Positions 3,847 to 25,191 of a DNA stretch of 50,083 nt are shown here, piece after piece (position 1 is the first letter of the stretch; every line of letters begins with the position of its first letter). The DNA is from Cytophagaceae bacterium. GTDB taxonomy: Bacteria; Bacteroidota; Bacteroidia; Cytophagales; Flexibacteraceae. Made by a program: the position numbers and the translations under genes. The notes below the pieces were generated by a model. The model saw only the letters and a program-made list of their open reading frames with translations. It had not been told where the DNA came from and did no database searches. The DNA is taken from assembly GCA_947441055.1 (NCBI GenBank), contig CANETC010000001.1, positions 1 through 50,083 on the forward strand, read 5' to 3'.

Positions 3847-4028
3847 CCTTTACATAATTGCAGCATTTCTATTTTTACCAACCTGCTTTCGAAGGCATAA
3901 TTCAGAAATCAATTATTAAAAAACAGGAAAGAGACAGCCTTGCAGAACTTGCAAAGTTTGCAGACTTCCTTTCAATTTTACCCTTTTCTTTGTTTTGGAA
4001 ATGGCCTTATCAAATACCAAGGGGTAAT

Positions 4029-5429
4029 ATGATTTCAGCAGACGACATCAGGCTTCTGGTTCAGGCCGGAGAAGGCTACAACGCCGAATTCAAGAAGGCT
4101 GTTCCCACCAAGGTAAAAGATATCTCCGAAGAAGTATGCGCCTTTGCCAATGCCGCCGGCGGCACGCTGCTCATCGGTGTAGACGACCAGAACCGCCTGG
4201 TTGGAGTAAAAGTGGATAATGCCCGGCGCTCTGCACTTCAGAACAGCCTTGGCGAAATTTCCCCTCATCTTTCTTGCCACTTGGAAATGGTTGAGGTAGA
4301 TGGCAAGACCATAGCGGTTATCGAAGTACCCTCCGGTCCTAAAAAGCCCTATGTCCTTTCCGGCGCAATCTATGTGCGCATTGGGCCCAATACCCAAAAG
4401 CTCACTACGGCCGAGCAGATGCGCGACTTCTTTCAGCAGGCAGGAAAAATCTATTTTGATGAAGTGCCCTGCCGGGACTTCCTCCCGGCCAGCATGATTG
4501 ATGCCTCCTTTTTGCCCATATTCAAGGCAGAATCCGGTATCAGTGCAGGTGTGTCCGATGAGCAGCTGTTTCAGAACCTTCGGGTTTATTCCGAAGATCA
4601 GCATTTCAAGAACGGCGCAGTATTATTTTTTGGAAAGCAACCCGAAGAAATTTTGGATAAGGCCATTATCCGCTGCATTGCTTTTCAGGATAAAGACAAA
4701 CGCTTTATCATCGACGACAAGGTATTTGGTGGCAACCTATGGCAACAATACCGCCAGGGCATGCAATGGCTTCGGGGCAAACTCAACGTGCGCTACGATA
4801 TTGAAGGCCAGGGCGGCGGTCCAAGAAAAGAGTACTGGGAGATTCCGGAAACCGTTTTTAAGGAAGCCATCATCAACGCCCTTTCACACCGCGATTATTA
4901 TGAGAAAGGCGCGGTTATTCACATCGAAGTATTTCAAAACCGGGTAGAGATCAGCAATCCGGGCGGGTTGGTAAGCGCCATTTCTGAGAAAGATTTCGGC
5001 AGGAAAAGCCATTCCCGCAATCCATTGATATTTGGTCTTTTTGCGCGGATGCAGCTGGTAGAGCAGGTGGGCTCCGGCATAGGCCGCATACAGGAATTGA
5101 TGGAGAAGGCCGGGCTTCCCGAGGCTAGCTTCAGTAAGGAAGGCATGTTTACCGTAATCCTTCAGCGGCCGGATCAATCCGAAGTAGATCAGAAAGAAAC
5201 TGGTTCGGAGAAAAGTTCGGAGAAAAGTTCGGAGAAAGGTTCGGAGAAAATTCTCGAACTGTTGAGAGAGAATCCAAATATGACAATCGCTGAAATAGCA
5301 GAGGCTATATCCATCAGCACCCGCGCAGTAGAGAAAAAAATCGCCAAGTTGAAGGAAAAAGGCATCCTCATTCGCCAAGGCCCCGACCGAGGCGGTGAGT
5401 GGCAGGTAATACCCAAACCGCAGAAATAA
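4029..5429 (+). CDS. AlbA_2 ('divergent AAA'/Schlafen-like) domain protein with HATPase_c_4-like region and C-terminal wHTH
   Basis: Same frame as track ORF 3858..5429. The family-like sequence begins at the ATG at 4029 (MISADDIRLLVQAGEGYNAEFKK). Motifs: FANAAGGTLLIGVDD, AIINALSHRDY. C-terminal wHTH: ILELLRENPNMTIAEIAEAISISTRAVEKKIAKLKEKGIL. Confidence 0.7.
   Translation: MISADDIRLLVQAGEGYNAEFKKAVPTKVKDISEEVCAFANAAGGTLLIGVDDQNRLVGVKVDNARRSALQNSLGEISPHLSCHLEMVEVDGKTIAVIEVPSGPKKPYVLSGAIYVRIGPNTQKLTTAEQMRDFFQQAGKIYFDEVPCRDFLPASMIDASFLPIFKAESGISAGVSDEQLFQNLRVYSEDQHFKNGAVLFFGKQPEEILDKAIIRCIAFQDKDKRFIIDDKVFGGNLWQQYRQGMQWLRGKLNVRYDIEGQGGGPRKEYWEIPETVFKEAIINALSHRDYYEKGAVIHIEVFQNRVEISNPGGLVSAISEKDFGRKSHSRNPLIFGLFARMQLVEQVGSGIGRIQELMEKAGLPEASFSKEGMFTVILQRPDQSEVDQKETGSEKSSEKSSEKGSEKILELLRENPNMTIAEIAEAISISTRAVEKKIAKLKEKGILIRQGPDRGGEWQVIPKPQK
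5203..5250 (+). repeat. 4 x 12-nt tandem repeat (GTTCGGAGAAAA) inside the CDS, encoding an (S/G)SEK linker
   Basis: Read directly from the sequence. Three degenerate 12-mers (AGTAGGGTGAAA x2, AGTTCGGAGAAA) recur after the stop codon at 5451-5486. Confidence 0.9.
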
Positions 5430-5518
5430 GGTCTGTTTTCTCCCTCAAAAAGTAGGGTGAAAAGTAGGGTGAAAAGTTCGGAGAAAGATATGGGCTGAAT
5501 TTTCAGTATAAGGCAATT

Positions 5519-5777
5519 GTCTGGACTATGATTAAGCTGATTAAGTGATTTACGAAAAATCAAAAAATCAAGTCAATCACAGGAATCATAAAAATCAGAG
5601 TCAAGACTATGATTAAGCTGATTAATTGATTAATATGATTTTCGGATATTTATAGAATCAAGGCAATCACAGAAATCAATGTCTGGACTATGATTAGTTG
5701 ATTAATATGATTTTCGGATATTTATAAAATCAAGTCAATCACAGAAATCATAAAAATCAGAGTCTGGACAATTGATT
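5519..5777 (+). repeat. three tandem copies of an 81-bp unit plus a partial fourth; same family as the repeats at 15247-15497 and 16660-16747 but inverted
   Basis: Units start with GTCTGGACTATGATT / GTCAAGACTATGATT at 5519, 5600, 5681 and 5762. Each contains AATCACAG(A/G)AATCA. The exact 14-mer AATCACAGAAATCA is present reverse-complemented near 15331. Confidence 0.85.
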
Positions 5778-8389: not shown

Positions 8390-11300
8390 TTAAGTAAATT
8401 GTGCAATAGGGCCTCCTGGATATTGCATTTTAAAATGTTCAAATAGCATACTTGTTTTAATGCCTATTTCATTTTCCGAGTATGCAGGATAAGGAAGAGA
8501 TTGAAAAAGGGTATCATTTACAAACCGATAAACTGAGGCTGCAGTTTCAGATTTATCAGACCACATTTCAACTTTCAGCTTTTCCTTCTTTAATTCATTA
8601 AGAAGTTGAATAGATATCTTTTTAATTTCATTTTTTTCTTTTTCATCTAAACTGATACCCTGTCTTAAAATATCAAAAACTGCTTTCTGCTCTTCATTTA
8701 AGCCTTCTCGACGCATTTCGGCCTCTCTTTCCGAGAAAGAACCCACAAGCTCGATCAGCTTCCGGAAAGTTTCATTCAGCGTTGCTTCATCTTTACCTTT
8801 GTTGTATGCTTCGATTATTTCTTGATAACGCTGGTAAAAATCAATATTCATCGGATTTGCAGAAAGCATCCTGTTCAACTGTTTTTCAACTTTATCTTTT
8901 AAAACCTGAACAGTGGTCTGCTTATTTTTCATTTTTAAAAAATACCGCTCAAGTTGCTGGAAATCCAGCCCGCTTAAATCAATGAGATTGCCTGTATTTT
9001 GACCTCCTTCTGCAGCAATATCAACAATAGAACCATCTACCACATCCTGAATTTTGCGCATTATGTCGGCAACATCAACATTTTTAAACTGCTCTACAAT
9101 GGCAGCATAAATGGCATCAACTGCATTTTTACGGGATGCAAATTCCTTCAGAAATTTATGGGGTTGTAAGGCCTTATATTTTTTAAAAACCTCTCTCGCC
9201 AGGATCTGGAATTTTCTGCGGGTTTCATCATTTGTATTTACAGCATTCTGCCCTCTTTCCAAAGCTGCGATTTTATCAATACCTACTGAATTAACCAGAT
9301 CTTCAAGATGATAATTCAGTTCATCTATTAGGAAATTCTCAATTGCAGACAATACCTCCTCCAGCTGGCGGTAAAGTTCATCGCTTGGTTTTAATGGAGG
9401 ATCCACAATATCTTTTCCTCCATTTCCTCCATTTCCAGTGTCAGCACCATAAATTGAAAGGGCATCCAATAGGGCTGTGTAGGTTTCTATGTAATCAACG
9501 ATCAGGCCATTATTTTTTCCCTCGCTGATCCGGTTGGCCCTTGCAATTGCCTGCATCAGGGTATGAGATTTCAGTGGTTTATCAAGGTAAAGTGTGGAAA
9601 GCGTTGGAACATCAAAGCCTGTAATCCACATGGCACAAACAATTACCAGGCGAAATGGGTCGTTTTCATCTTTAAACCGACTCTCGAGATCCTGACTGTT
9701 CATCTTTTCCCGGTGGGGCTCTATGTCCAGATTCCAGTTCCGGAATTTTTGAATTTCATTTTGCTCGGGACTCACTACAACGCATATTTCTGTAGCGCGG
9801 ATCCACTGCAATTCCCTTTTTTTCTCAAGGGTTTCCTGGTCACCAAATTTTGATTTCCGGATTTCTTTTTCAAAGTCATCTGCGTATTGCTTCCACTGGA
9901 CAGAAATAAGGTCATACATGCGCACAGCAGTGAGCTTATCGAGCGCTATGAACATGCCCTTTCCTTTGTAACCCCGGTTGCAGAAGTGCCACACCGCATC
10001 CCTTGCAATCGCTTCCAACCGCTTTTTTGAAGTTAATATTGGATACTCCCTTGCTATTAGCTGCTCAACACGACTACGCTGAATGTCGTCCAACTCATCG
10101 CCTTCTTCATCCAGCACTGCACGGATTTGCGCGTTGATATCAGGATTCTGAAGGCCCAGGTATTCTCCCCTGTTTTCATAAAAAAGTGGAACTGTGGCAC
10201 CATCATCTACGCTTCGTTTGAAATCATAACGGGAAACATAATCACCAAAAATTCGGCGGGTGATTTCATCATCCTTAAACAAGGGTGTTCCGGTAAATCC
10301 GATGAATGAGGCATTTGGTAATGCATTCCGGAGGTTCATGGCCAGACTTCCCCCCTGCGTACGATGAGCCTCATCTGAAATTACAATGATGTTGTCCCTT
10401 CGGGTAATTTCTTGGTCAAAATTGAATTTATGAATCAGTGTAAAAAGATATCGGTGATCCGAGGCGAGTAAATCTTTCAGATGCCTGCCGCTGTTTGCTC
10501 TAAGGGAATCCGCAGAACCAGACCTGACATTTGGCACGGCACCAACTCCAGCGAATGTTCCGTAAATCTGAGTGTCCAGTTCATTTCGGTCAGTCACCAC
10601 AAGAAAGGTGTAGCTACCTCGGAAGGTTTGGTGAATTTTCTGGCAGAAAAAAACCATGGAATAGGATTTCCCGCTCCCTTGGGTGTGCCAGAAAACACCT
10701 AGTTTCTGTTTTTCCTCCAGACTTATTTTCCCTGCCTGATAAAGCAGTTCTTTCTGGCGGATGTTGTCTATTGCCTTATTTACGCCAATGAACTGATGAT
10801 TTCTTGCAATTAGTTTTACTACCTTACCAGCGGAATTGTCGAAAAGGATAAAGTTCTCAAATAAATCGAGAAAGCGGCTTTTCTCACATACTCCAACCAA
10901 AATCCGGTCAAGGGCAATGGTTCCCTCATCTTCTTCACTGATTCGCTTCCACTCGTGAAAATGCTGGTATTTGCCGGTAATGCTGCCTATCCTGCTTCCT
11001 ATGCCATTGCTCAGAATAACAAAAGCATTGAAATGAAACAGTTCCGGAATAACATCCAGATAATCGCTGAAATTATCTGAATGGGCACTCTCCAGATTTC
11101 GATGCGCTGCCTTGAGTTCTATGAATAAAAGGGGAATTCCATTTACAAAACCAATGATATCCGGCCTCCGGTCGCGGCTGCTTTTTCCCTTTATCCAAAG
11201 TTGCCTTACTGCAGTAAAATCATTATTTTCCGGAAGTTCAAAGTCAATAATTTTCAGACGCTTGTTGCGCACATGTTCTCCTTGTTCATTCAGGTAATCA

Positions 11301-11614
11301 ACCAGAATTCCGTTGCGGATGAGATTGTGTTTTTCAAAATTAATTTCTGCAATGCTCTTGCTGCTGCTGAATTCAATGAGACGCTGAAACGCCTCTTCGT
11401 AAGCTTTTACAGGCAATCCGGGATTTAAGTCCGTGAGCTTTTGAAGAATCTTTGGCTTGAGTAAAATTTCTTTTTTGCTGTTTCTGCCTAAAGTACCGGC
11501 TTCACCGAAAACTTCTGAATTGTAGGCCAGAATGGTTTTCCATTTCAGTTTTTCTTCAAACAGCTGAATGGCGGTCTGTTCTATCAGTTTATCTTCTGAA
11601 TATTCCCAGGACAT
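8390..11614 (-). CDS. hsdR: type I restriction endonuclease subunit R
   Basis: 1074 aa. N-terminal PD-(D/E)xK segment PDIIGFVNGIPLLFIELK. SF2 motifs: HTQGSGKS, VISDEAHR (DEAH), IGFTGTP, QAIARANR. Long helical C-terminal region. Confidence 0.92.
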   Translation of the reverse strand: MSWEYSEDKLIEQTAIQLFEEKLKWKTILAYNSEVFGEAGTLGRNSKKEILLKPKILQKLTDLNPGLPVKAYEEAFQRLIEFSSSKSIAEINFEKHNLIRNGILVDYLNEQGEHVRNKRLKIIDFELPENNDFTAVRQLWIKGKSSRDRRPDIIGFVNGIPLLFIELKAAHRNLESAHSDNFSDYLDVIPELFHFNAFVILSNGIGSRIGSITGKYQHFHEWKRISEEDEGTIALDRILVGVCEKSRFLDLFENFILFDNSAGKVVKLIARNHQFIGVNKAIDNIRQKELLYQAGKISLEEKQKLGVFWHTQGSGKSYSMVFFCQKIHQTFRGSYTFLVVTDRNELDTQIYGTFAGVGAVPNVRSGSADSLRANSGRHLKDLLASDHRYLFTLIHKFNFDQEITRRDNIIVISDEAHRTQGGSLAMNLRNALPNASFIGFTGTPLFKDDEITRRIFGDYVSRYDFKRSVDDGATVPLFYENRGEYLGLQNPDINAQIRAVLDEEGDELDDIQRSRVEQLIAREYPILTSKKRLEAIARDAVWHFCNRGYKGKGMFIALDKLTAVRMYDLISVQWKQYADDFEKEIRKSKFGDQETLEKKRELQWIRATEICVVVSPEQNEIQKFRNWNLDIEPHREKMNSQDLESRFKDENDPFRLVIVCAMWITGFDVPTLSTLYLDKPLKSHTLMQAIARANRISEGKNNGLIVDYIETYTALLDALSIYGADTGNGGNGGKDIVDPPLKPSDELYRQLEEVLSAIENFLIDELNYHLEDLVNSVGIDKIAALERGQNAVNTNDETRRKFQILAREVFKKYKALQPHKFLKEFASRKNAVDAIYAAIVEQFKNVDVADIMRKIQDVVDGSIVDIAAEGGQNTGNLIDLSGLDFQQLERYFLKMKNKQTTVQVLKDKVEKQLNRMLSANPMNIDFYQRYQEIIEAYNKGKDEATLNETFRKLIELVGSFSEREAEMRREGLNEEQKAVFDILRQGISLDEKEKNEIKKISIQLLNELKKEKLKVEMWSDKSETAASVYRFVNDTLFQSLPYPAYSENEIGIKTSMLFEHFKMQYPGGPIAQFT

Positions 11615-11619
11615 GTTAT

Positions 11620-12786
11620 TTATACCGGTAAGTGCAGAATTGAATCGTTCCTTGCAAATTTAACCGGCTTTCCGTTAACAACCCTTACCTGCGGATTTTT
11701 CTTTAATGCTGCACCAAGCTTTCGCACATCCCAGTCTGGCATTTTCAAGGCCAGAATCAATTCTTTTGCGGTTAAAGGGCCCGATTGCAATAGTCGCAGT
11801 ACCTCATGCAGCATATCCGTTTTTCCAGCCTGAAATTCCTGTTTTTCTTCACTTAGAATTTCAACATTAGAGACGGTTTCTTTTTGGTAAACTGTAGGAC
11901 TTTGTACCGGATTGCCTTCCTGATCCACCGCAAATGCTCCCATGGCAATCAGCCGGTCATTGGCATTTTTTTCGCCTTTCAAGGGTTGGCGGACATAAAT
12001 TTTGCGCTGCCTTTTCAGTCCATCCATCACGCCCTCCCAGGTTCCGCCCTTGCTGTCGGATTCTGCTGCGTATATTTCAGTGGCCTGTCCGTAGATGTAT
12101 GCATTTCTGGCCATGGCCAGACCAACCTCCCATCCGGCTTTGGGAAAAAATGTACTGATTACCAGAAGCTTTCCATTTACAATGGCCTCATAGTGCTTTT
12201 TGAATCCTGATTGAAATGTAAGAATGCCTTGTGGAAGAACAATGATGCTTTTCCCTCCGGCAGCAAGGGCACTATCCATGGCCTGTTGGTCAACTCCTTT
12301 GGCATACCCACTCACCACCACCTTCCCTTCTGAAGCACATTTAGCGGCTACCTTATCGGTAAAGGCCAGGGCGGCATTGCCCGCTTTTCGGGAACCCACA
12401 ATGGCTACAGCCTCTCCATGCAGCAATTCTATTTTTCCCTTTGCATACAAGAGTGGAGGGCAGCTTTTAACTTTTAAATTTGATTTCAGGGCAGCGGGGA
12501 AATCCGGAGAATTGATTGGAATCAGACGGTAACCCTCATTGTGCAATTGCTCTGCGAGAAAGGCAAGCCGCGGAAAATCCTCTTGCACCTTATCCATGGC
12601 AGCAGCTTCTTTAGGTTGCAGAGGAAAAATCTCCTGCCGTTCAGATGAAGAAAGAGTGAAATATTCAGAAAGTAAAAGCCCTTTTTCTTTCAGGATTACC
12701 GAAAGCAACTGGTTGGTTCGCTCGGTAGTCAGGCCGGAGAGATGGGCAATGGCCATCCAGTAGGCGTTTTCGGTATTTGCATTCAT
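11620..12786 (-). CDS. DprA/Smf-like (SLOG Rossmann) protein with C-terminal wHTH; PsyrA/ShosA-like partner
   Basis: VAIVGSRKAGNAALAFTDKVAAKCASEGKVVVSGYAKGVDQQAMDSAL matches the DprA Rossmann core. The usual GIDxxAH reads GVDQQAM here. C-terminal wHTH-like segment: LLQSGPLTAKELILALKM. Gaps are 5 nt to hsdR and 11 nt to the RecQ fusion. Confidence 0.8.
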   Translation of the reverse strand: MNANTENAYWMAIAHLSGLTTERTNQLLSVILKEKGLLLSEYFTLSSSERQEIFPLQPKEAAAMDKVQEDFPRLAFLAEQLHNEGYRLIPINSPDFPAALKSNLKVKSCPPLLYAKGKIELLHGEAVAIVGSRKAGNAALAFTDKVAAKCASEGKVVVSGYAKGVDQQAMDSALAAGGKSIIVLPQGILTFQSGFKKHYEAIVNGKLLVISTFFPKAGWEVGLAMARNAYIYGQATEIYAAESDSKGGTWEGVMDGLKRQRKIYVRQPLKGEKNANDRLIAMGAFAVDQEGNPVQSPTVYQKETVSNVEILSEEKQEFQAGKTDMLHEVLRLLQSGPLTAKELILALKMPDWDVRKLGAALKKNPQVRVVNGKPVKFARNDSILHLPV

Positions 12787-12797
12787 TGTTTTGCGCT

Positions 12798-14813
12798 TTA
12801 AATATCTCCGCCAACCGTGCGGGCAATAACCAGTGGTGCAATCATTTCAGCTCCCTGATTTGTGAGGTACAAACCTATTTCCTTTATGGTTACGCCACTA
12901 TCGAAAATATCATCAAACAGCAGAACCCTTTTACCCCGAACAATCCGGGTATCCTGCAAGGTAAATTTGCCCTGTACATTCTCCTTCTTCGTAATTCCGC
13001 TCTGAAACATTTTCTGTGGTGAAGTGGGTGCCGATTTTATCAGATCGTGAGAGAGTGGAACGCCCAAGGTCTTCGATATTTTCTCTGCAAAATTTCGCAC
13101 CAGATTTCCCGATTCGGTGGGTGGCACATACAGGAGCACATCGAAACGGAGATTTCCATAGTGTTTTCTGAAAGCCTTCAGGCAAAGACGCAACAGCCAG
13201 TCGGGGAAATCGCCACCGCCTTCGTATTTAGAATGGCGCAGGGCAGCACCCACATTTGATACTCCATAGTAGGATGCTGCTACTCCATTCACGATGTTAC
13301 TTCTTTGTGTTTCTACTTCGAGCAATGGAAAAAAAGTTTCCCGGAATTCCTGCAGCTTAAGCTTGATGGATTCATCCGGCTGTACCTTCATAAATTCGCG
13401 GCGGTCGTTATCGCAAACACCGCAATTGCCCGAATGTGCATCACCAAGGTAATCGCAGAGGTACTCCATGCGGCAGGATTGAATCTCTGTATATTCAAGC
13501 ATCCTTTCAAGTTCGGCGGTTTGCGCATCGCGGAGCCGGTCAAAAGCCGAATAATCCAGTTCTGGGGCATCCGGATTGTAAAAGTACTTTTTGCTGGCGC
13601 CCTGCTGCTGCACATTCAGGATGCCCTGTTCGACAAGATCAGCCAGAATAATGCCAACCGTGGTTTGCTTGAGGTTGGTTGCCCTAATGATTTCATTTCT
13701 GCCCATCAGCGCCCTCTTGGTGGCTTTTATTACCCGCTGATAAGTGGCAGCGGCTGGTTTGCTGCCATCAATAAAGGCCCGGGGCAGGGTATCGTCGGTT
13801 TCGGGATTATAGAGTAAAACAACAAATGATTCTTCACCATCGCGTCCTGCACGGCCAATTTCCTGATAGTAGTGAATGGGCGATTGCGGCACCTGGGTAT
13901 GGATGATAAATCGGATGTCTGGCTTGTCTATCCCCATTCCAAGCGCATTGGTTGAAACCACACAATCAAAACGGCTGGCAATAAAATCAGATTCCACCCG
14001 CACCCGGCTATCAGAATCCAGGCGGGCGCTGTATGCCGCAGAATTGATGCCGAGAAACTGCAGCCAGTTGGAAAAGACATCCGTCTCTACCTGGGTGCCG
14101 GTGTACACGATACCAGTCTTCCTGAAACTTGGTATATAACGGGCGAGCCAATAGAATTTTTCATCCTCGCTTGCTACCTGTACCACAAACAGGCGCAGGT
14201 TATTCCGCATCAGTTGTCCCCGGATGGGAATCAGCTGGCCACCTACCTGCCGCAGAATATCTTCTTCTACCCGGGGTGTGGCAGTTGCAGTAGTAGCCAG
14301 AACCGGGAAATTGGTAGGCAGAAAACGCACCAGATCCACAATGCGGCGGTAGTTGGGCCTGAAACTCTGCCCCCACATGGAAATGCAGTGTGCTTCATCG
14401 ATTACCACCATGGCTATTTTCATTTGCCTCGCTGCCGTAATCCATGCGGCATTTTCCATGCGCTCGGGTGCGATGTAAAGAATATCAATCTTGTTTTGGG
14501 AGGCTTTCTCAATAATCGCCCGGTTTTCGTCAGGTTCCTGATTGGAATTAATTGCCGCAGCACGGATGCCTTTTTTTTGCATACTTCGTACCTGGTCTCG
14601 CATCAAAGCAATGAGCGGAGAAAATACAATGGTGACTCCATCCAGCTGGGTAGCAGGAAACTGAAAGCAGAGGGATTTGCCAAAACCGGTTTTCTCGATA
14701 AACAAAACCCGGCGGCCGGCCATTAGGTTTTCAATTACCTTCCACTGCAAATCATGGAAACTGGAAAACCCAAACAGGCGCTGAAGTTGTATTTCGGCTT
14801 GCTGTCTGTTCAT
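12798..14813 (-). CDS. RecQ-family SF2 DNA helicase fused to a C-terminal ComF/type-I phosphoribosyltransferase-like domain
   Basis: RecQ motifs: EKTGFGKSLCFQ, VIDEAHCISMWG, ATTATATP, QEIGRAGRDG, and a Cys cluster CRMEYLCDYL..CGVC. The last ~170 aa resemble ComF: VLLYVPPTESG, ENVQGKF, and the PRPP loop GKRVLLFDDIFDSGVTIKE. Confidence 0.85.
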   Translation of the reverse strand: MNRQQAEIQLQRLFGFSSFHDLQWKVIENLMAGRRVLFIEKTGFGKSLCFQFPATQLDGVTIVFSPLIALMRDQVRSMQKKGIRAAAINSNQEPDENRAIIEKASQNKIDILYIAPERMENAAWITAARQMKIAMVVIDEAHCISMWGQSFRPNYRRIVDLVRFLPTNFPVLATTATATPRVEEDILRQVGGQLIPIRGQLMRNNLRLFVVQVASEDEKFYWLARYIPSFRKTGIVYTGTQVETDVFSNWLQFLGINSAAYSARLDSDSRVRVESDFIASRFDCVVSTNALGMGIDKPDIRFIIHTQVPQSPIHYYQEIGRAGRDGEESFVVLLYNPETDDTLPRAFIDGSKPAAATYQRVIKATKRALMGRNEIIRATNLKQTTVGIILADLVEQGILNVQQQGASKKYFYNPDAPELDYSAFDRLRDAQTAELERMLEYTEIQSCRMEYLCDYLGDAHSGNCGVCDNDRREFMKVQPDESIKLKLQEFRETFFPLLEVETQRSNIVNGVAASYYGVSNVGAALRHSKYEGGGDFPDWLLRLCLKAFRKHYGNLRFDVLLYVPPTESGNLVRNFAEKISKTLGVPLSHDLIKSAPTSPQKMFQSGITKKENVQGKFTLQDTRIVRGKRVLLFDDIFDSGVTIKEIGLYLTNQGAEMIAPLVIARTVGGDI

Positions 14814-14822
14814 ATGTCTTAA

Positions 14823-15242
14823 CTATGATTGATTTAATTTTTGTGATTCTGTTGATTCATACTTTTTGTTGGTAAGGCGTTTAAAATTTAAACTGGTTTC
14901 CCCAAAATTAATCAGCAAACCAATTTCCAGATTATATGCCTCCAGGTAATTTATGGCTTGAGCAAAATGAACATCCTCTAATTTGCTTATTGCTTTTAAC
15001 TCTACCGATAGATTGCCTTCTATTAAAAAATCTACCCTTCTGGTGCCTATTTGTTCTTCTCTATAGAAAATAGGCATTTCAAACTCTCTGCTAAATTCAA
15101 TTCCAGCCAACCTCAATTCGATTGCAAGAGCCCGCTGGTAAATTACTTCCTGAAAACCATTGCCCAATGTTTTATGAACAGTCATGGCACATCCGATTAT
15201 TTTGGATGTCAATTCTGAATATTTGTATTCCTCTTTAATCAT
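14823..15242 (-). CDS. GxxExxY protein (PD-(D/E)xK-like small protein common in R-M operons)
   Basis: GNGFQEVIYQRAL carries the GxxExxY motif; RVDFLIEGNLSVELK also seen. The start is taken at ATG 15242 (MIKEEYKY). The track's 22-codon extension to 15308 runs into the tandem repeats. Confidence 0.8.
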   Translation of the reverse strand: MIKEEYKYSELTSKIIGCAMTVHKTLGNGFQEVIYQRALAIELRLAGIEFSREFEMPIFYREEQIGTRRVDFLIEGNLSVELKAISKLEDVHFAQAINYLEAYNLEIGLLINFGETSLNFKRLTNKKYESTESQKLNQS

Positions 15243-15246
15243 TGCA

Positions 15247-15497
15247 ATTGTCTTAACTGTGATTCTTTTGATATTAATTTTTTCTTTCGAATCATCGCGA
15301 ATTTCCACATTGTCTTAACTGTGATTCTTTTGATTTCTGTGATTTTGGTGATATTAATTTTTTCGTTTCTAATTATCGTGAATATCCTCATTGTCTTAAC
15401 TGTGATTCTTTTGATTTAAGTGATTTCAATGAAATCTATCTTTTCTTCCTATTATCATATTAATCAAAAAATCACAAAAATCATAGTTCAGACATTT
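15247..15497 (-). repeat. three tandem repeat units (62, 81 and ~105 nt) with terminal inverted repeats TGTCTTAACTGTGATT ... AATCATAGTTCAGACA
   Basis: ATTGTCTTAACTGTGATTCTTTTGAT starts at 15247, 15309 and 15390. The last unit ends ...AATCATAGTTCAGACATT near 15497. The family is shared with 16660-16747 and, inverted, with 5519-5777. Confidence 0.8.
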
Positions 15498-15504
15498 TCC
15501 TGAT

Positions 15505-16629
15505 TCAGACCTCTACTTCACCATTCATCAGCCTTGGCAATAAAATATCCCGTGCCTCCCGGAGTTTGGTGTTTTGTTTTGTCAAGTTTAATATCAAGTT
15601 ATACATCTGTTCCGCCTCAACTTCAAATTCTTGTTGTATTTTATCACTTGGTGTTTTCAACTTGACTTTCATCAGTTCTACTTTTGTAACAGCATTAAAT
15701 ATTGCTCCATTTCCGATAACATCCTCTGCAAAAAAGAATTCTTTCAATTGATGATAGAAATAATTCTGAAAACCTTTTTTGCTCCTAAATGCACATAAAC
15801 CCCGACCAATGCAGATTTTATCACTTGTGAAATTAATTCTTCCTACTGGGGCTCTTACTGAAAATAAAATATCTCCTTCTTCTGCAATTTTAATTGGTGC
15901 ATTACAATAGATTCTGTGTTCTACAAAGTAGTTTGAAAAATTAGTTACTCCTTGGTGAAAGGGCAAATTATCTTCCTTTTCATTGGTATATGTATCAGAA
16001 GTTGGACTTTGGCCCATAATAACATATGCCAATTCCTCAATGGTAAATTCTTCCAACTTTTCAGTTTGAACAATCAACTTATAAATCAAAAACGCCTTCT
16101 CCTCCAGCAACTTTATCCGCTTCAAATTATTCTCTATCAAATCATCATAAGCCGATAAAATGGAAGCGATTTTGCGCTGGGTGGGGAGTGGGGGGAATTC
16201 TATCGGTTTGCCACCAATAATATCAGGATTAACTGCCGGGTAATTAGCCCCTTGTTCATACGCAACTAAATATGCAGTAAAACCGGGTTCGCTAATCAAA
16301 TAGTATAAAAACCTTGGATCTGTTTTATTTGCTTTAGGTCTTAAAACAGCAAATCCAGTTGACACAATTGAATTTTCAAAAGGAGATTTAAAGTAATAAA
16401 ATGACCTATTGCCTGGTCTAACTGTGGCTAAAATTGTGTCATCTTTTCTAACAACTCTCTTAGCTCTTAAAGGTGCTTCGCTTAATGGAATCTCATCATT
16501 AGATGTCACAACACCACTTCCAACAGAAGTAATGTCAAAGTATCGGATAAAATCGTGCGGATAGTTCCTTGAAATATTTTCAGGGTTTATATCGCACAGG
16601 TCAAAAACATTTCCTTTCTCCCATTTCAT
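15505..16629 (-). CDS. hsdS: type I R-M specificity subunit
   Basis: Two variable halves are separated by the conserved helix LPTQRKIASILSAYDDLIENNLKRIKLLEE, with a C-terminal helix TKLREARDILLPRLMNGE. The gene is AT-rich relative to its neighbours. Confidence 0.88.
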   Translation of the reverse strand: MKWEKGNVFDLCDINPENISRNYPHDFIRYFDITSVGSGVVTSNDEIPLSEAPLRAKRVVRKDDTILATVRPGNRSFYYFKSPFENSIVSTGFAVLRPKANKTDPRFLYYLISEPGFTAYLVAYEQGANYPAVNPDIIGGKPIEFPPLPTQRKIASILSAYDDLIENNLKRIKLLEEKAFLIYKLIVQTEKLEEFTIEELAYVIMGQSPTSDTYTNEKEDNLPFHQGVTNFSNYFVEHRIYCNAPIKIAEEGDILFSVRAPVGRINFTSDKICIGRGLCAFRSKKGFQNYFYHQLKEFFFAEDVIGNGAIFNAVTKVELMKVKLKTPSDKIQQEFEVEAEQMYNLILNLTKQNTKLREARDILLPRLMNGEVEV

Positions 16630-16659
16630 ATCGCCAACTCTTTATAGTTTTCAGAAATG

Positions 16660-16747
16660 CTTGTCTTCACTGTGATTTTTATGATTAAAGGATTACCCTG
16701 ATTAATCATACAATCATACCAATCAGATGAATCATAGTTCAGACATT
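16660..16747 (-). repeat. single ~88-nt copy of the TIR-bounded repeat family, between hsdM and hsdS
   Basis: CTTGTCTTCACTGTGATT...AATCATAGTTCAGACATT. The ends are mutually complementary and match those of the 15247-15497 units. Confidence 0.7.
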
Positions 16748-16750
16748 GTT

Positions 16751-18823
16751 TCATAGTGCAAGCTCTTTGTAATTGTTCATAATGATTTGGGCCAGTTGAG
16801 TGGCTTCTTCATTCAATCCTTCCAACTCAATGTGTATTTCGTTCAGGCGTTCTTCGTAGTCAGAGTCATCATCAGTAGCGGTATCCACGCCAACATATCG
16901 GCCCGGGCTCAGGCTCCAGTCTTTGGCTTCAATTTCTTTTTGCGTAACTACTTTACATAATCCTTCCACATCGGTATAAACGCCTTCGGGGAAACGGTTT
17001 GTAAGCCAATGGGCTTGTTTGTAGAAATATTCGGTTTCGTGCAGCAATCCGGGTTCTTCTTCATCGGGGTTGCCGCTGAGTTGCTGTTGCAGGTCTTTCA
17101 GGATATCCAGTTTTTCTTTGATACCAAGGTCTTTCCAATCTCTGTTTTTGGCCAGCTGATATTCTTTATTTGCTGTTGAGATAACATCCAGCAATTGTTT
17201 TATCAGCTTATCCTGTGGTTTGCGGATTGCTTTGCATTGCCGGGCAATTTCTTCCAGGATCTGGTGGTCGGGCATTGCTTTCTCGGCAACCGAGATCAAT
17301 TGCTTTTGCAAATCAGCCATTTCTGGCATACCTGCCAGATTCAAGGCCTCAACCCATTTTTCGGCAGCCGGTATTTCTTTGGTAAAACGCGCTGCAAATT
17401 CAAATACAGCACGATAAGTCACTTGTAAATGCTCCTGTAATGCCCGAGTTGCATCTGCAGTTTCCTTGGCCAGGGCAGTAGTCTGCTCCAAATATCCGGA
17501 AACTGTTTTTTCAAATTTTTCGGCATGGCCGCGGTATAAGCCAACAATACAAATCAGGTTTTGCAATTGCTCGGGGCTAAAGTCGTTTACCTTGCTGGTA
17601 ACCTTGCGGTAAATTTTTCGGGCATCAAGCATCAGTACTTTATCTTTTTTTGCTTCGTCCTGTTCTTTGGCTCTGTCAAAAAACCACAGGGTGCAAGGCA
17701 ATGAACGGGTATAAAAAAAGTTGTTGCCAATGGCCATCATCACATCTACCGCACCTGTTTTTACCAGCTTTTCCCGTATGTCTTTCTCGCTATGGCCTGC
17801 ATCGCTGGCAGACGAAGCCATTACAAAACCTGCTCTGCCGGTTGGCTTCAGGTAGTTGTAGAAGTATTGAATCCACAGATAATTGGCATTGTCGTTTTTG
17901 GGCAGGTTAACGGTCCCGTCCAGTTTCAGCCGGGGATCTTTTTTAACGGCATCCTTTGCCTTATCCACTCCATCCACATTAAAGGGAGGATTGGCCATTA
18001 CAAAATCGGCACCACCTACAATGTTGTGTTTGTCTTCGTAAAAAGTATTGCCTTCCTGAATATTGCCTTCCAGTCCGTGAACGGTTAAGTTCATCTTTGC
18101 CAGTTTGGTATTGAGGTCGGCTTTTTCCTGTCCGTAGAAGGTAACTTTTTCGGCAGGCTTTAGTCCTTCGCTTTCTATGAAATAGCCCGTTTGCACAAAC
18201 ATACCTGCACTTCCGCAGGCCGGATCGAACACTATGCCGTGGTCGGGTTCAATTACATTTACAATGGTTTGCACAAGGCTCATTGGTGTAAAAAATTCTC
18301 CGCCTTCCTGCGCACCGGACATGGCAAATTTGCCCAGGAAGTATTCATAAATCTTCCCGAACAAATCGCCTTCGGCTTTTTGCAACACTTCTTTATTGAA
18401 AATGCGGAGCAGTTCGCGCAAGAGGTCTTTGCTGAAAATGGAATAGTTTTTTGGCAAAACACCTCTGAGGGTTTCATATTCCTCTTCAATCAGTCTCATG
18501 GCATTGTCTATGGCCTGACCGGTGTCTGCACTTTCGGGCAGGTTAACCAGAAAGTCGAACCGGGCTCCTTCAGGAAGAAACATGGCATTTTGCTCCAGAA
18601 AATCATTTTTTTCTATTGCCCTCCTGCCTCTTTGAGGATGAAAGGGCAGGGTTTGCTCTACCAGGGCCTGAACTTTTACAAATCGGTTAAAGGCATGCCG
18701 CAGAAAAATTAAGCCCAGCACGGGCATGGAATATTCTGATGCCGTTAGTTTGGAATTGGCTCTAAGCTGGTCGGCGGCTCGCCAAAGTTCTGCCTCCAGT
18801 TGTCTTAATTGTTTACCCTGCAT
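16751..18823 (-). CDS. hsdM: type I R-M N6-adenine DNA methyltransferase subunit M
   Basis: HsdM_N segment LWRAADQLRANSKLTASEYSMPVLGLIFLR. SAM motif VFDPACGSAGMF. Catalytic motif VMANPPFN. About 200 aa of helical C-terminal extension. Confidence 0.92.
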   Translation of the reverse strand: MQGKQLRQLEAELWRAADQLRANSKLTASEYSMPVLGLIFLRHAFNRFVKVQALVEQTLPFHPQRGRRAIEKNDFLEQNAMFLPEGARFDFLVNLPESADTGQAIDNAMRLIEEEYETLRGVLPKNYSIFSKDLLRELLRIFNKEVLQKAEGDLFGKIYEYFLGKFAMSGAQEGGEFFTPMSLVQTIVNVIEPDHGIVFDPACGSAGMFVQTGYFIESEGLKPAEKVTFYGQEKADLNTKLAKMNLTVHGLEGNIQEGNTFYEDKHNIVGGADFVMANPPFNVDGVDKAKDAVKKDPRLKLDGTVNLPKNDNANYLWIQYFYNYLKPTGRAGFVMASSASDAGHSEKDIREKLVKTGAVDVMMAIGNNFFYTRSLPCTLWFFDRAKEQDEAKKDKVLMLDARKIYRKVTSKVNDFSPEQLQNLICIVGLYRGHAEKFEKTVSGYLEQTTALAKETADATRALQEHLQVTYRAVFEFAARFTKEIPAAEKWVEALNLAGMPEMADLQKQLISVAEKAMPDHQILEEIARQCKAIRKPQDKLIKQLLDVISTANKEYQLAKNRDWKDLGIKEKLDILKDLQQQLSGNPDEEEPGLLHETEYFYKQAHWLTNRFPEGVYTDVEGLCKVVTQKEIEAKDWSLSPGRYVGVDTATDDDSDYEERLNEIHIELEGLNEEATQLAQIIMNNYKELAL

Positions 18824-18880: not shown

Positions 18881-18952
18881 CAAATCTAATTGCTTTCTGT
18901 TAAACAGAAGTCCAGAGCAGGCTTATTAAATCTTCTGCATGAAAACCCGGTC

Positions 18953-20437
18953 CTACACCAGCCTCCAGCCCCATTGCTTCTTTTCCTTGTTGTAGGATTT
19001 TATGGCATGGCCGGTGAGGTCGCTTCCATCGCTCAGCTGGTATTTCGCTACCAGTGCGGGGGGGATAAATGCATCTTCCAGAAATCCGAAGGTCTTGCCT
19101 TCCAGTATTTTTACCTGGCCGGCAACATACTTGTAAAAGCGGCTTTTGAATTCTTCATCCTGCACCTTTTCTGCTGTGTAGACCTGATGCATGCCTTCTT
19201 TGCTTCCACCCTGAAATCGCACGCTCAATACATCGCCCGGTTTAACATCCGGGAGCAAGCGGTCATATTTGAAGTAGCCAAGCCGGTTTTCTGATGCTAT
19301 AAAGTTGAGCATCTTCTTGTCCTTGTTAACGAACTCCACAAAAATCCGCTCTTCCGGCACATCGCTGTACAGAATAGCATCGGCCCGGAAAGCATGCTGT
19401 TTGTAAAACTTCAGGTTGGATGGCAAATCGCTTGCCTGCTGGTACCAATCTTCAAGAATCCAGCTAACCACTTCCGGTGGGATTTTAAAGCCCATATCGG
19501 AGCGAACCTCTACCAGCGTGTTGATTTCGGTTCTGGCCTCGTTGTAAAATCCTTTTTCCATCATTAACCCAGCCATTTTCTGGCGCAGGCTCACCAGCAT
19601 TTCTTTCGGGCTTTTACAAAGTAGGGCCCGGCAATAACAGGCAAGCACAGTATCCGGATCTTCGGAAAAAGCCTCGGCAATTACCTCCCAAACCCAGAAG
19701 TCATTTTTCTTTTTCCGGGCAAAAGGCAGCAAGGCCTCTAGCACATTATTTCTGTTTCCAAGCGCTAGTAATAGCTTTGCCTGAAAATAGGGTGGGTATT
19801 GATATTCTGGGTGATTCTCGACCACTTCTTCCAGCCGGGGTAAAAAGGCGGCCGCCTTACCCCGGTCAAATCCTGCTTGTCCGGGTAGCAATTGTTTGGC
19901 ATAGGCAATGTAGGCCTGCTCTACAAGCGCCATCATATCCTTGCCATTTTCTAATTTTTCCTTTTGCCAGTCTTCCGGCCGGAAATGGTTGAAATTCCAC
20001 CAGTCGGCAAAAGGTATGTAATGAGCGCTACCCTTGAGCAATTTATGAAATGCCTTGTAGAGAAAACTGTAGCCTTCTTCTCCTTTTGGGAAATGGAACG
20101 ATTTTATTGCCTCAAAAAGCTGAACGGTCTGCTGCTGCGGGAGTGGGTTAAGCTTTGCCATACTCATACCCATACGGCCGATTTGCCAAGCAACATTGCC
20201 AAACAGCAGTTTTTCATCTACTGTAAGTTCGAGTTCACGAATCGCATTCAGCCAAACAAGAAATTCGTTGAAAGCTCCGGCATGGGCATTGAGTTTCAGG
20301 TAATCGTAGTACACCCAGCTGATGTTGCGTTTCGGCCAGATGTTATCCGGTTCGGCAATACACTCCGCCTTTGCCATTTCAAGTGCGGCTTCCAGATTGC
20401 CTTGTTGACGTAGTTCTTTTATTTCTTTAGACGGCAT
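18953..20437 (-). CDS. hypothetical protein: N-terminal TPR-like helical repeats, C-terminal tandem OB/S1-like segments
   Basis: 494 aa. The helical-repeat N-terminal part includes QQGNLEAALEMAKAECIAEP. The C-terminal beta-rich segments are GDVLSVRFQGGSKEGMHQVYTAEKV and GQVKILEGKTFGFLEDAFIPPALV...GHAIKSYNK. The start overlaps the helicase stop by 11 nt. The domain calls are by eye only. Confidence 0.45.
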   Translation of the reverse strand: MPSKEIKELRQQGNLEAALEMAKAECIAEPDNIWPKRNISWVYYDYLKLNAHAGAFNEFLVWLNAIRELELTVDEKLLFGNVAWQIGRMGMSMAKLNPLPQQQTVQLFEAIKSFHFPKGEEGYSFLYKAFHKLLKGSAHYIPFADWWNFNHFRPEDWQKEKLENGKDMMALVEQAYIAYAKQLLPGQAGFDRGKAAAFLPRLEEVVENHPEYQYPPYFQAKLLLALGNRNNVLEALLPFARKKKNDFWVWEVIAEAFSEDPDTVLACYCRALLCKSPKEMLVSLRQKMAGLMMEKGFYNEARTEINTLVEVRSDMGFKIPPEVVSWILEDWYQQASDLPSNLKFYKQHAFRADAILYSDVPEERIFVEFVNKDKKMLNFIASENRLGYFKYDRLLPDVKPGDVLSVRFQGGSKEGMHQVYTAEKVQDEEFKSRFYKYVAGQVKILEGKTFGFLEDAFIPPALVAKYQLSDGSDLTGHAIKSYNKEKKQWGWRLV

Positions 20438-22616
20438 ATTCTTCTTGTTTCAGGGTTTGAATTGCTAACTGTATTTCGGACAGTAAAGCCGGGCTATTGG
20501 ATTTATTGGTCAGTGGCAGAACTCGGCCAAAAAAGCCATGCTGGTTGTATTCAAAATCGAGCATCGCACGCTGGCTGCCTTTGGTAAAAGTGTATCGTTC
20601 CCGGTAATCAAAGTGCTCTACGGCTTCAATGGCAATATCGCTTGAATCAAACAATGATTTTAAATCGTCGTATAAGTAGCGGGTAAAAGGAAATTTCTCT
20701 TCCTGCTCTACTTCAAAGGCCAATTTACTCAGAATGGTTTCCGGGCTATTCCGCTGAATGGTCAGTTTTGGGAGTTCTTGTAAAATACCGGCGATTTCGC
20801 TGTTGAATGCAGCATGGGGGGAGGCTCCCGGAATTAAAGCAAACTGTTTCTTAAATTCGTTTTGTCCATTTATCCAGGTTTTAAGGCTTGCCCGCTCCTG
20901 CTCCCGTTGAAAAGTGTACCAGATTTCATAGGCCTTTCTCTCCCAGGCCACAATTTCAATATACTTGTTTCGTACAGCATGCCGTACCTGAATGAAATGA
21001 TCCTGGAGTTGAGCAGGTTGTTCTGCAAGACCCATTTCGCTGAGTGCTTTTAGTATGTCGGGATCAATTGAGATGTCTTCAGGTTGAAGGACTTTACCGC
21101 TCAGTTCTTCCAAACCTTTTATCACCGGCATTTCCAAAAAGGATAAAGTGGAATAAGAGTTGAAAAAGGGTGGATTTAGAGCAAAATGTTTTTTTGAACT
21201 GCGGGTTACAGCCGTATAGGCCCAGCGATAAAACTCTTTATTGGTCTTACCGGCCTTTCGCTGCTTATCCGTGAGGTAGTTGAAGTTATCCGCATTTTCA
21301 TGATCCCAGATGCTGAATACCTGTTCCCACTCTCCACCCTGCGCTTTATGACAGGTTACAGCATAGCCATATTTTAACCGCAGGCAGTTAAAATACCCAT
21401 CATTCATTATGGCATCTTTAAACTCGGGCGTCTCCGATCTAAGCCCTGGATGCCTTTGCGTGAAATCCACATACAAGGCCTGGGTTTCTTCAGGAGTCAG
21501 GTAATTATCTCCGAAAAGGAAATTCTCCAGCATCAAGCCTTTTACCAACTTGTTGCTGCTTTCGCCATCAGGAAAAACAAGTTCCACATTGCGCCAGACC
21601 AAATTTACAGGGGCTTTCCCCTTCAGGTAAATTGTGCGTCGGATTGGGGAATCATCTGCAGAATTCACTACAGCAAATTCACCATTAAAAACACCCTTGC
21701 GGTAGTTATTGGCCCCAATAATCACAATTTCACCTTTCTGGGGCGGAAGCATCCGGCTGCCATATTTTCTTTCCCTGATCCTTAAATTGATATCAAGACA
21801 GGTTTTGTTTTTACTGGCAATAATGATTTTTGTGCTTTTCACACCTTCCCATATACTCAAAAAATCATCACCTGCGAGATTGAAAACATCCCGGTTGTTT
21901 GCCTTCAGATTAAAGTCGTTGAAATAGCCGGCCGAAATACTCTTTCGGATTTTAGTCGCCGCAAGCAGGATACCGCTTTCGCCCTCCTGGCGCAAAACTT
22001 CTTTTAGCTCCGCCTCCTGACAGGAAAGTTTAAATTTTTCCCTGAAATAATCGGGTTCAAAAGCTTTGGAACTGTTATCGCCAACGGGAGCAAGCTGGCA
22101 GGGATCTCCAACAAAAATAATCTTGGAATGAACATTGGGTTCCTTAACCCGAGTATATTCGATTAGGTCATCAAGCAAAAATCCAGATCCAAACCGAAAA
22201 AATTCGCCTTCACTTTTGGCATTCGAAACCATGGAAGCCTCATCCACAATAAAAACTTTGCCAGCCACATCAATGTTATTGCGCAAAGCATACGAATAGA
22301 AAAAGGAGTCTCCTTCATTAACTTCTACCAGGCGATCAAAGCAATAAATGCCTTTATGGATGGTTACAGCTTCCTGGCCTGTCTTTTCCCGAATTACTTT
22401 GGCGGCCCGCCCGGTTGGGGCCAGAAGAGCAAAATCTTTTGAAATGGAATTCAGGTATTGAACAAGTCCTTTGAGAATGGTGGTTTTACCACTACCGGCA
22501 TACCCTTTTAGCATAAACACAGGATCTGAACCTTGGAAAAAGCGCTCCAATTTGCCCAGGGCTTCTTCCTGCGAAGGGGTTAATTGCAGTTCCTCAAAAT
22601 GACTGAAAATACGCAT
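20427..22616 (-). CDS. SF1 (RecD/Dda/Pif1-like) helicase with ~260-aa unknown C-terminal extension
   Basis: Walker A GYAGSGKTT. Motif II FIVDEASMV. Motif III IFVGDPCQLAPV. Motifs V/VI YAVTCHKAQGGEW and YTAVTRS. The start lies 8 nt after the upstream ORF's stop. Confidence 0.8.
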   Translation of the reverse strand: MRIFSHFEELQLTPSQEEALGKLERFFQGSDPVFMLKGYAGSGKTTILKGLVQYLNSISKDFALLAPTGRAAKVIREKTGQEAVTIHKGIYCFDRLVEVNEGDSFFYSYALRNNIDVAGKVFIVDEASMVSNAKSEGEFFRFGSGFLLDDLIEYTRVKEPNVHSKIIFVGDPCQLAPVGDNSSKAFEPDYFREKFKLSCQEAELKEVLRQEGESGILLAATKIRKSISAGYFNDFNLKANNRDVFNLAGDDFLSIWEGVKSTKIIIASKNKTCLDINLRIRERKYGSRMLPPQKGEIVIIGANNYRKGVFNGEFAVVNSADDSPIRRTIYLKGKAPVNLVWRNVELVFPDGESSNKLVKGLMLENFLFGDNYLTPEETQALYVDFTQRHPGLRSETPEFKDAIMNDGYFNCLRLKYGYAVTCHKAQGGEWEQVFSIWDHENADNFNYLTDKQRKAGKTNKEFYRWAYTAVTRSSKKHFALNPPFFNSYSTLSFLEMPVIKGLEELSGKVLQPEDISIDPDILKALSEMGLAEQPAQLQDHFIQVRHAVRNKYIEIVAWERKAYEIWYTFQREQERASLKTWINGQNEFKKQFALIPGASPHAAFNSEIAGILQELPKLTIQRNSPETILSKLAFEVEQEEKFPFTRYLYDDLKSLFDSSDIAIEAVEHFDYRERYTFTKGSQRAMLDFEYNQHGFFGRVLPLTNKSNSPALLSEIQLAIQTLKQEEYAV

Positions 22617-22624
22617 AGCTCATT

Positions 22625-24511: not shown

Positions 24512-25191
24512 GCTATTTCAAGTATTAATCTATCTAGAATTTGCTTAATCTGCTTAATCTCGTCAATAGAGACAAGATTAAACTCATTTCCTGAAAGAGT
24601 TTTTTCTGTTTTCTCGTTCAATAAATCGCTTTTAATAACTTCATTAATTTTCAGATCTCTTACCCTTTTAATAATTTCACTTTCATCTATTTGCGCATTT
24701 GGAATTTGCGTTTTGATTACTTGCTTGTTTATAGCGACGGCTAAATAATTCCGTAGGTTAAGAAGCAGACTCAATTTCCACTTTCTCCCGAATTGAAGTA
24801 CTAGTAAATTGATATTACTATTTTCCTCAAATTTCTCTATAAACAATTTAAGATTTTCAGAATAAAAATCTCTTGAATTAATATGAAGGAAGGGAAATTC
24901 TACATCCTTAATTACACTTGATGTAATTCCACCAGAAAAGAAAATTAATGGTTTTCTTTTTGATCTACAATAATCCTTTAATGTATCTCTAACTTCAGTT
25001 GAAAATGCAGATCGGTGAGAGGCAATACATTCAAATTGATCGAGTATACTGGTGTCATTAATCTTTAAGGAGTTAACTAGGGTGTCAAATTCAGAACCGG
25101 TAATTATTGAAACTGATTTATAACTTTTCAAATCAAAATCAGCATACTGTTCAAGTCGGCCTATTCTATCTTCAATTATTGAAATTTTCAT
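24508..25191 (-). CDS. uncharacterised 227-aa protein (weak flavodoxin/receiver-like pattern)
   Basis: MKISIIEDR... and KRKPLIFFSGG weakly resemble the beta1 and beta4 strands of a CheY-like fold. ATGA overlaps occur at both ends (25188-25191 and 24508-24511). About 30% GC. No family was recognised. Confidence 0.45.
   Translation of the reverse strand: MKISIIEDRIGRLEQYADFDLKSYKSVSIITGSEFDTLVNSLKINDTSILDQFECIASHRSAFSTEVRDTLKDYCRSKRKPLIFFSGGITSSVIKDVEFPFLHINSRDFYSENLKLFIEKFEENSNINLLVLQFGRKWKLSLLLNLRNYLAVAINKQVIKTQIPNAQIDESEIIKRVRDLKINEVIKSDLLNEKTEKTLSGNEFNLVSIDEIKQIKQILDRLILEIA

Follow-up and report, generated by a model that had tools for sequence, protein, structure and literature searches.

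Two described toxin-antitoxin systems of phage defence, PsyrTA (also known as RqlHI) and ShosTA, combine a phosphoribosyltransferase (PRTase) toxin with a DprA-like antitoxin (10.1101/2022.05.11.491447). RqlH, the same protein as PsyrT, belongs to the RecQ helicases and has a C-terminal PRTase domain to which its toxicity maps, and RqlI (PsyrA), which consists of a DprA-homology region and a C-terminal helix-turn-helix (HTH), attaches to RqlH and opposes its action (PMC4670107). Genotoxicity of the PRTase domain shows as SOS induction and filamentation, and binding of the DprA-like partner neutralises the domain. Here we analyse two adjacent genes from a 50,083-nucleotide stretch of DNA of a Cytophagaceae bacterium (assembly GCA_947441055.1, contig CANETC010000001.1, positions 1 to 50,083), referred to below as the window, whose products have these same domains. 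The pair is very probably a standard PsyrTA anti-phage toxin-antitoxin, carried as cargo at the junction of hsdS and hsdR in a type I restriction-modification (R-M) operon of a Bacteroidia defence island, and it most likely works as an autonomous abortive-infection module that is co-expressed with restriction.

The toxin gene, psyrT (rqlH; 12798-14813, minus strand), encodes 671 amino acids that match the PADLOC PsyrT model PDLC03928 with an E-value of 3.9e-245, residues 1-670 aligning with profile positions 1-688 of 689. A RecQ-like superfamily 2 helicase occupies about residues 10-340, with Walker A (GFGKS at 43), the DEAH box (at 139) and motif VI (QEIGRAGR at 317) all intact, and is followed by a zinc module of four cysteines, C447, C453, C464 and C467 (residues 447-467, nucleotides 13413-13475), and by the PRTase domain (about residues 526-666, nucleotides 12816-13238). 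The latter contains an acidic phosphoribosyl pyrophosphate (PRPP) loop, VLLFDDIFDSGVTIKE at residues 630-645 (nucleotides 12879-12926), with the core VLLFDDIFDSGVT at 630-642; in RqlH the equivalent loop reads DIVD, and toxicity depends on its D663 (PMC4670107). Pfam agrees with this motif scan, detecting DEAD (1.2e-26), Helicase_C (1.5e-21), RecQ_Zn_bind (4e-8) and, at the C-terminus, Pribosyltran (9.5e-9; 35.2 bits, the cut-off being 26.3). Among NCBIfam models the helicase passes the recQ_fam subfamily (323.9 bits, above the cut-off of 219.8), and the nearest relatives of the C-terminal domain are PRTases of the GntX/ComF type, at about 1e-7 to 1e-8 and under the family cut-offs. Of the 39 PADLOC matches to the toxin, the best 25 include no ShosT model. 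The original prediction, made from the sequence alone, thus read the RecQ core and its continuation into a PRTase domain correctly, and its link to PsyrTA/RqlHI is confirmed by the PADLOC profiles of both proteins, that of PsyrT nearly end to end; its further proposal that two toxin types had been merged in one polypeptide does not hold. Because the PsyrT profile spans both the RecQ and the PRTase parts, and the same canonical architecture is described in the literature (PMC4670107; 10.1101/2022.05.11.491447), the fusion is the defining feature of the family.

Downstream of the toxin lies psyrA (rqlI; 11620-12786, minus strand), encoding a protein of 388 amino acids that PADLOC assigns along its full length to PsyrA (4.4e-80) ahead of ShosA (1.6e-33), so that the pair as a whole is recognised as PsyrTA and not as ShosTA. 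It was predicted to be a full-length DprA-like protein with the motif GVDQQAM and a winged HTH, and Pfam (DNA_processg_A, 4.4e-39), the motif scan (GSR at residue 131, GVDQQAM at 164) and an AlphaFold2 model (mean predicted local distance difference test score of 87) all agree. The model comprises an N-terminal helical domain, a Rossmann (SLOG) domain at residues 87-290 (nucleotides 11917-12528), a disordered linker and, at the C-terminus, a winged helix at residues 325-379 (nucleotides 11650-11814), the last formed by three helices and a beta-hairpin. When the model was compared with the PDB by Foldseek, the best match was ShosA (8zva, 1e-17), along with DprA structures (3maj and 3uqz).

Compared with the characterised systems (RqlH-RqlI of E. 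coli F11, RqlH of M. smegmatis and the PsyrTA of Millman et al. 2022), the window pair has the same order, toxin then antitoxin, and the same architecture, with helicase, four-cysteine zinc module and PRTase in the toxin and Rossmann domain plus HTH in the antitoxin. The two differ in sequence, the window PsyrT being only about 32% identical to that of E. coli, and in position, since the window copy lies inside a type I operon whereas the common E. coli copy lies between gntU and yhgN. ShosTA resembles the pair in joining a PRTase toxin to a DprA-like antitoxin, and ShosA is the top structural match of the PsyrA model; however, ShosT has no helicase, whereas the window toxin carries a complete RecQ helicase, and the antitoxin is nearer to the PsyrA than to the ShosA profile. 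With this locus a known defence family gains a divergent member from the Bacteroidia, and the genomic arrangement is likewise of a known type.

The embedding itself is real. Genes for full-length HsdM, HsdS and HsdR lie on the minus strand and make up a putative type I system: hsdM (16751-18823) encodes a methyltransferase subunit of 690 amino acids (Pfam HsdM_N and N6_Mtase, 4.8e-77; PADLOC MTase_I PDLC03035, 7.3e-238), hsdS (15505-16629) a specificity subunit of 374 amino acids (two stretches of Pfam Methylase_S; PADLOC Specificity_I, 2.5e-47), and hsdR (8390-11614) a restriction subunit of 1074 amino acids (Pfam HSDR_N, SWI2_SNF2, T1R_D3-like and T1RH-like_C; PADLOC REase_I PDLC03040, 7.4e-159; NCBIfam hsdR, 2.8e-139). 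Between hsdS and hsdR, in the same orientation, stand psyrT, psyrA and a gene for a small GxxExxY protein of the PD-(D/E)XK_3 type (14823-15242; Pfam PDDEXK_3, 7.4e-39; NCBIfam TIGR04256, 1.3e-40), whose listed open reading frame begins at a GTG at 15308, an ATG at 15242 being the likelier start. The locus is thus an embedded defence system by gene order, as originally noted, and the gaps of 9 nt between the GxxExxY gene and psyrT (14814-14822), 11 nt between psyrT and psyrA (12787-12797) and 5 nt between psyrA and hsdR (11615-11619) proved exact by coordinates.

How far this embedding extends was assessed in species-representative genomes and metagenome contigs, a sample biased towards relatives of the query. 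Among about 35 loci with a full-length PsyrT homologue in species-representative genomes, hsdM and hsdS upstream and/or hsdR downstream, as in the window, were found only in the three closest (L001, L008 and L026, 76-81% identical), the remaining loci having mixed and mostly housekeeping neighbours by Pfam tallies. In metagenome contigs, embedding was likewise confined to the closest relatives (L084 and L085, 76-78%). The Pfam and PADLOC tallies covered two neighbours on each side and the 25 most frequent families, so that single R-M neighbours could be missed; outside one subclade, neither the PADLOC tallies nor phmmer searches with the window HsdR, HsdM and HsdS (E < 0.01) found any neighbour resembling these subunits, a search that very different type I families could escape. 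The PsyrT tree has 48 informative loci, of which 6 are embedded and the other 42 stand alone. The embedded copies fall in one clade of 11 members (SH-aLRT support 96), the embedding label changes twice on the tree, and equal clustering was obtained in none of 500 shuffles. With L026 and the contig P0003, the embedded loci known in the sample, including the window, come to eight, all with at least 75% PsyrT identity and all from one Bacteroidia subclade, to which non-embedded copies (L082, L002, L003 and L087) also belong. Since most homologous pairs stand alone, the distribution favours the autonomy of PsyrTA. The original prediction had itself raised the prospect of a housekeeping recQ-dprA pair unrelated to R-M in relatives; half of this holds, as most relatives do lie outside R-M loci, but what they form is a mobile toxin-antitoxin defence pair.

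Within the embedded clade, pairwise identities are 75-78% for PsyrT, 72-74% for HsdR and 78-81% for HsdM but only 32-41% for HsdS, and the small cargo genes vary as HsdS does. Since PsyrT, HsdR and HsdM have diverged in step while HsdS and the small cargo vary, the composite operon appears, as far as these comparisons reach, to have been co-inherited as a unit in this subclade, with variable cargo in the zone between hsdS and psyrT. A relative about 92-96% identical, from another freshwater metagenome, retains the order hsdR-psyrA-psyrT-GxxExxY with a replaced hsdS. The 94%-identical relative on contig P0003 has the order TOTE-hsdM-hsdS, three small genes, psyrT, a gene of 562 amino acids with no Pfam match, psyrA and hsdR, and a 75% relative (L081, 3265-14432) reads hsdM-hsdS-KwaA-KwaB-psyrT-psyrA-hsdR, placing two defence systems, Kiwa and PsyrTA, in a single type I operon. 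L082 (3332-11896), from an uncultured Proteiniphilum relative with 75% PsyrT identity, has psyrTA immediately after a type III mod-res pair and ahead of a UDG-family gene and an IS66 element.

PsyrTA is also found embedded far from the Bacteroidota. A tblastn search of PLSDB plasmids with the window PsyrT returned nine records with at least 80% coverage, of which seven full-length ones were inspected, six of them annotated. One, an E. coli IncF plasmid (NZ_OX030731.1), carries an HTH gene followed by hsdM, hsdS, the RecQ/PRTase gene, the DprA-like gene and hsdR, psyrA ending 12 nt before hsdR; in an Acinetobacter plasmid (L165, NZ_CP090068.1, 3387-15082), PsyrTA and a GmrSD-like (DUF262/DUF1524) gene lie inside BREX-1 between pglX and pglZ; four annotated plasmid copies stand alone. 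Of 5,426 complete E. coli genomes, 53 (about 1%) contain the E. coli operon with an identity of at least 99%, and about 1,620 have the classical rqlHI between gntU and yhgN, which has no R-M neighbour. The five genes hsdM-hsdS-psyrT-psyrA-hsdR stand in an order identical to that of the window and belong to a homologous type I family (HsdR 44%, HsdM 46% and PsyrT 32% identical; both HsdRs have PDLC03040 as best PADLOC match), but the E. coli operon lacks the GxxExxY gene and the repeat-filled spacer. The window PsyrT shares 50-58% identity with non-embedded PsyrTs close to its clade. As the embedded E. coli PsyrT is more distant than these non-embedded relatives, the same type I slot has been filled by different PsyrTA lineages, which points to independent capture or cassette replacement as the probable origin of the two arrangements. 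E. coli thus holds two PsyrTA lineages (L164, L168, L169 and L173-L175), one stand-alone at gntU-yhgN, the other type I-embedded behind a 74-aa HTH_17 protein in the 53 genomes and one IncF plasmid. In the single O157:H7 genome inspected (L175), rqlH is frameshifted.

The classic case of an embedded type I gene is PrrC. A class of defence genes embedded in type I R-M operons has been described (10.1101/2024.01.29.577857; PMC12255303; 10.1101/2024.04.04.588119), and a survey of 'guilt-by-embedding' covers type I, BREX and DISARM systems (10.1101/2024.01.29.577857). In enteropathogenic E. coli, DarTG2 lies between the hsdS and hsdR genes of an island regulated by RptR, a position its authors regard as a potential recombination hotspot (PMC12255303), and TgvAB lies within the type I cluster of the V. 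cholerae island VPI-2. The embedding of PsyrTA is an instance of this class, represented by PrrC, DarTG2 and TgvAB. In a limited literature search, which included the supplements of the guilt-by-embedding preprint, we found no paper naming PsyrTA as embedded type I cargo, and it may be described elsewhere. DarTG2 offers a parallel in position, being a defence module of two genes, toxin and antitoxin, that shares the orientation of the surrounding genes and stands where hsdS meets hsdR in an operon of the order hsdM-hsdS-hsdR; it differs in that its toxin ADP-ribosylates DNA, whereas that of the window is a helicase-PRTase, and in its regulator, as no RptR-like small regulator was found ahead of hsdM in the window, while the E. 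coli PsyrTA operon has its HTH_17 protein there. PrrC, an anticodon nuclease embedded in EcoprrI, is also an abortive-infection effector in a type I operon, but only the embedded position is shared: PrrC is almost always embedded and is controlled by the R-M complex, whereas PsyrTA mostly stands alone and has no known regulatory link to HsdR.

The cargo found at the junction in related operons comprises Kiwa with PsyrTA (L081), HTH and unidentified genes (P0003), GxxExxY (L008, L026, L084 and L085), a RhuM/Fic-domain protein (L085) and a Schlafen-AlbA regulator (L001). GxxExxY is present in five of the eight embedded loci, the window and the four just named, and is missing from L001, L081 and the P0003 contig. 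The slot is thus a mosaic cargo site and GxxExxY an optional cargo. In Bacteroidota and Enterobacteria alike, the junction of hsdS and hsdR in a type I family marked by PDLC03040 and a HindI-like C-terminus is a slot that takes several kinds of cargo, its contents across the two groups including PsyrTA, Kiwa, GxxExxY, RhuM/Fic and HTH genes. A three-gene PsyrTA variant was also seen (L125, 2605-4203), with a protein of 532 amino acids between psyrT and psyrA whose PRTase-like C-terminus matches that of PsyrT (PADLOC, 1.7e-11) and ShosT (2.6e-6); the P0003 contig, with its gene of 562 amino acids in the corresponding place, is a second such variant.

Drawing on the published PRTase-dependent toxicity, its neutralisation and binding by RqlI, and the phage defence provided by the pair, we propose that PsyrT would act as a RecQ-like DNA helicase of 3'-5' polarity, with the PRTase at its C-terminus as the genotoxic effector that arrests growth, and that PsyrA, a DprA-like protein with a winged helix and a predicted ability to bind single-stranded DNA (ssDNA), would bind PsyrT and hold it inactive. 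We infer that phage infection would free PsyrT, for instance by way of intermediates of replication or recombination or because PsyrA is lost, and that the freed PRTase would disturb nucleotide or DNA metabolism and so abort the infection; an analogy is offered by ShosT, which binds PRPP and disrupts purine metabolism (PMC11961720). PsyrTA would most likely act on its own, and its place in the operon would bring co-expression and co-transfer with restriction, hence a layered defence and not a new composite enzyme. An ssDNA-directed or backup role for the restriction enzyme, as first suggested, may exist, although none of the findings here supports it.

Several observations weigh against treating PsyrTA as an autonomous passenger. 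The pair has been captured repeatedly beside or within systems of the R-M kind (twice with type I, and also with type III and BREX-1), and psyrA ends 1-12 nt before hsdR in all embedded loci except L085, a regularity that could mean more than passive cargo. In its native E. coli host NILS69, moreover, PsyrTA gave no detectable protection (10.1101/2024.12.20.629700). One alternative is that PsyrTA is wired to HsdR as PrrC is to EcoprrI, sensing phage anti-restriction, failed restriction or the DNA ends and ssDNA made by HsdR translocation and cleavage, and firing as a second line. The tight junction with hsdR in both the Bacteroidia clade and E. coli, the occupation of one slot, in homologous type I systems, by two PsyrT lineages only 32% identical, the copies after type III mod-res (L082) and inside BREX-1 (L165), and the seeming co-inheritance of PsyrT, HsdR and HsdM would all fit such a guard. 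However, most PsyrTA pairs have no R-M neighbour; stand-alone PsyrTA is reported to be defensive in a heterologous host (10.1101/2022.05.11.491447); other cargo separates psyrA from hsdR (the RhuM/Fic gene of L085, at 3735-4748, in the only embedded locus without a tight psyrA-hsdR junction) or psyrT from psyrA (P0003 and L125); and the junction of hsdS and hsdR is a general cargo hotspot. We therefore regard the guard as unlikely. The broader idea of a functional tie to translocating restriction and BREX machines, with a helicase-PRTase triggered by the products or the failure of restriction, would if true explain why unrelated lineages were captured immediately upstream of hsdR in a single type I family, both in Bacteroidia and in E. 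coli, after type III res and inside BREX-1, and we give it an equally small chance.

It is quite improbable that the main role of the pair is to stabilise the operon or island, by the killing of any cell from which this is lost, phage defence being a secondary effect. RqlH is indeed toxic without RqlI (PMC4670107), a psyrA deletion mutant could not be transformed, possibly owing to toxicity (10.1101/2022.05.11.491447), and the composite operon has been kept across some 25% protein divergence; but the antitoxin is encoded downstream of the toxin, PsyrA is large and looks stable, nothing points to a difference in stability between PsyrT and PsyrA, and the four subclade members named above have left the operon. 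A housekeeping function in DNA repair or transformation, with a RecQ helicase and DprA acting on chromosomal or incoming ssDNA, draws on domain families shared with RecQ, ComFC/GntX and DprA, but is hardly credible for proteins that fall far short of the NCBIfam equivalog or subfamily cut-offs (recQ 368.8 bits against 640.2, dprA 107.6 against 191.15, comF 25.8 against 233.55, GntX 31.3 against 304), show a patchy, mobile spread over Bacteroidota, Thermodesulfobacteriota, Ignavibacteriota, Pseudomonadota, archaea and plasmids, and share their defence island with TOTE and a reverse-transcriptase system.

The E. coli hsdMS-psyrTA-hsdR operon offers a tractable natural case in which to study cooperation of an embedded toxin-antitoxin with restriction, and an R-M-linked PsyrTA variant could give a handle on the PsyrTA trigger. 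Coupling of the guard type to HsdR would, if true, be the interesting outcome, and it is testable in the same operon.

The spacers of the operon are filled by repeats. The 16-nt motif AATCACAGTTAAGACA occurs seven times in the window, all within 14815-16745, against 0.03 expected. It belongs to a repeat resembling a miniature inverted-repeat transposable element (MITE), with the terminal motif AATCA(C/T)AGT(T/G)(A/C)AGACA, which fills the spacers between hsdM and hsdS (16662-16745) and between hsdS and the GxxExxY gene (15249-15494). The second of these spacers (15243-15504, minus strand) consists of tandem copies of about 81 nt that carry the 16-nt motif; one copy (14815-14830) adjoins the ATG of psyrT, and an array recurs about 10 kb away at 5518-5760. 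In another metagenome, depth over 15296-15679 averages 28x and reaches about 120x at single positions, and the repeat is therefore multi-copy. L008 and L085 also have a single copy after the GxxExxY gene. We considered the 16-nt junction motif as a recombination site for cassettes and rejected it, since it is part of this dispersed MITE-like repeat, is multi-copy in other metagenomes and is missing from most related operons.

A TAnnTTTG box at 18888, 65 nt upstream of the hsdM start, is weak evidence for a promoter, such boxes occurring at about the chance rate (10 seen, about 9 expected). No full Bacteroidota promoter (TTTG-N-TAnnTTTG) was found within the operon; sites resembling sigma-70 promoters or terminators occur about as often as chance predicts, the terminator-like ones being no commoner than in shuffled sequence. 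The sequencing runs that hold the sequence are exclusively DNA metagenomes, the source being lake water. Co-transcription with hsdR, which the original prediction concluded from the gaps, fits this very short spacing and terminator-like sites at the level of shuffled sequence; co-expression is plausible, and a common transcript probable.

The operon forms part of a larger cluster. The genes directly upstream on the same strand (18953-27365) encode a TOTE pair (PDC-M16A/B), a protein of the iREC/receiver type and a reverse transcriptase that is joined in one protein with a conflict-type histidine-kinase domain, and the region from 8.4 to 27.4 kb is a single defence island. About 3 kb past hsdR, at 3858-5429 on the plus strand, lies a gene for a protein with Schlafen-AlbA_2, HATPase_c_4 and winged HTH domains, and a protein of the same architecture is encoded in L001 (2758-4134), where its gene is inserted between hsdM and hsdS.

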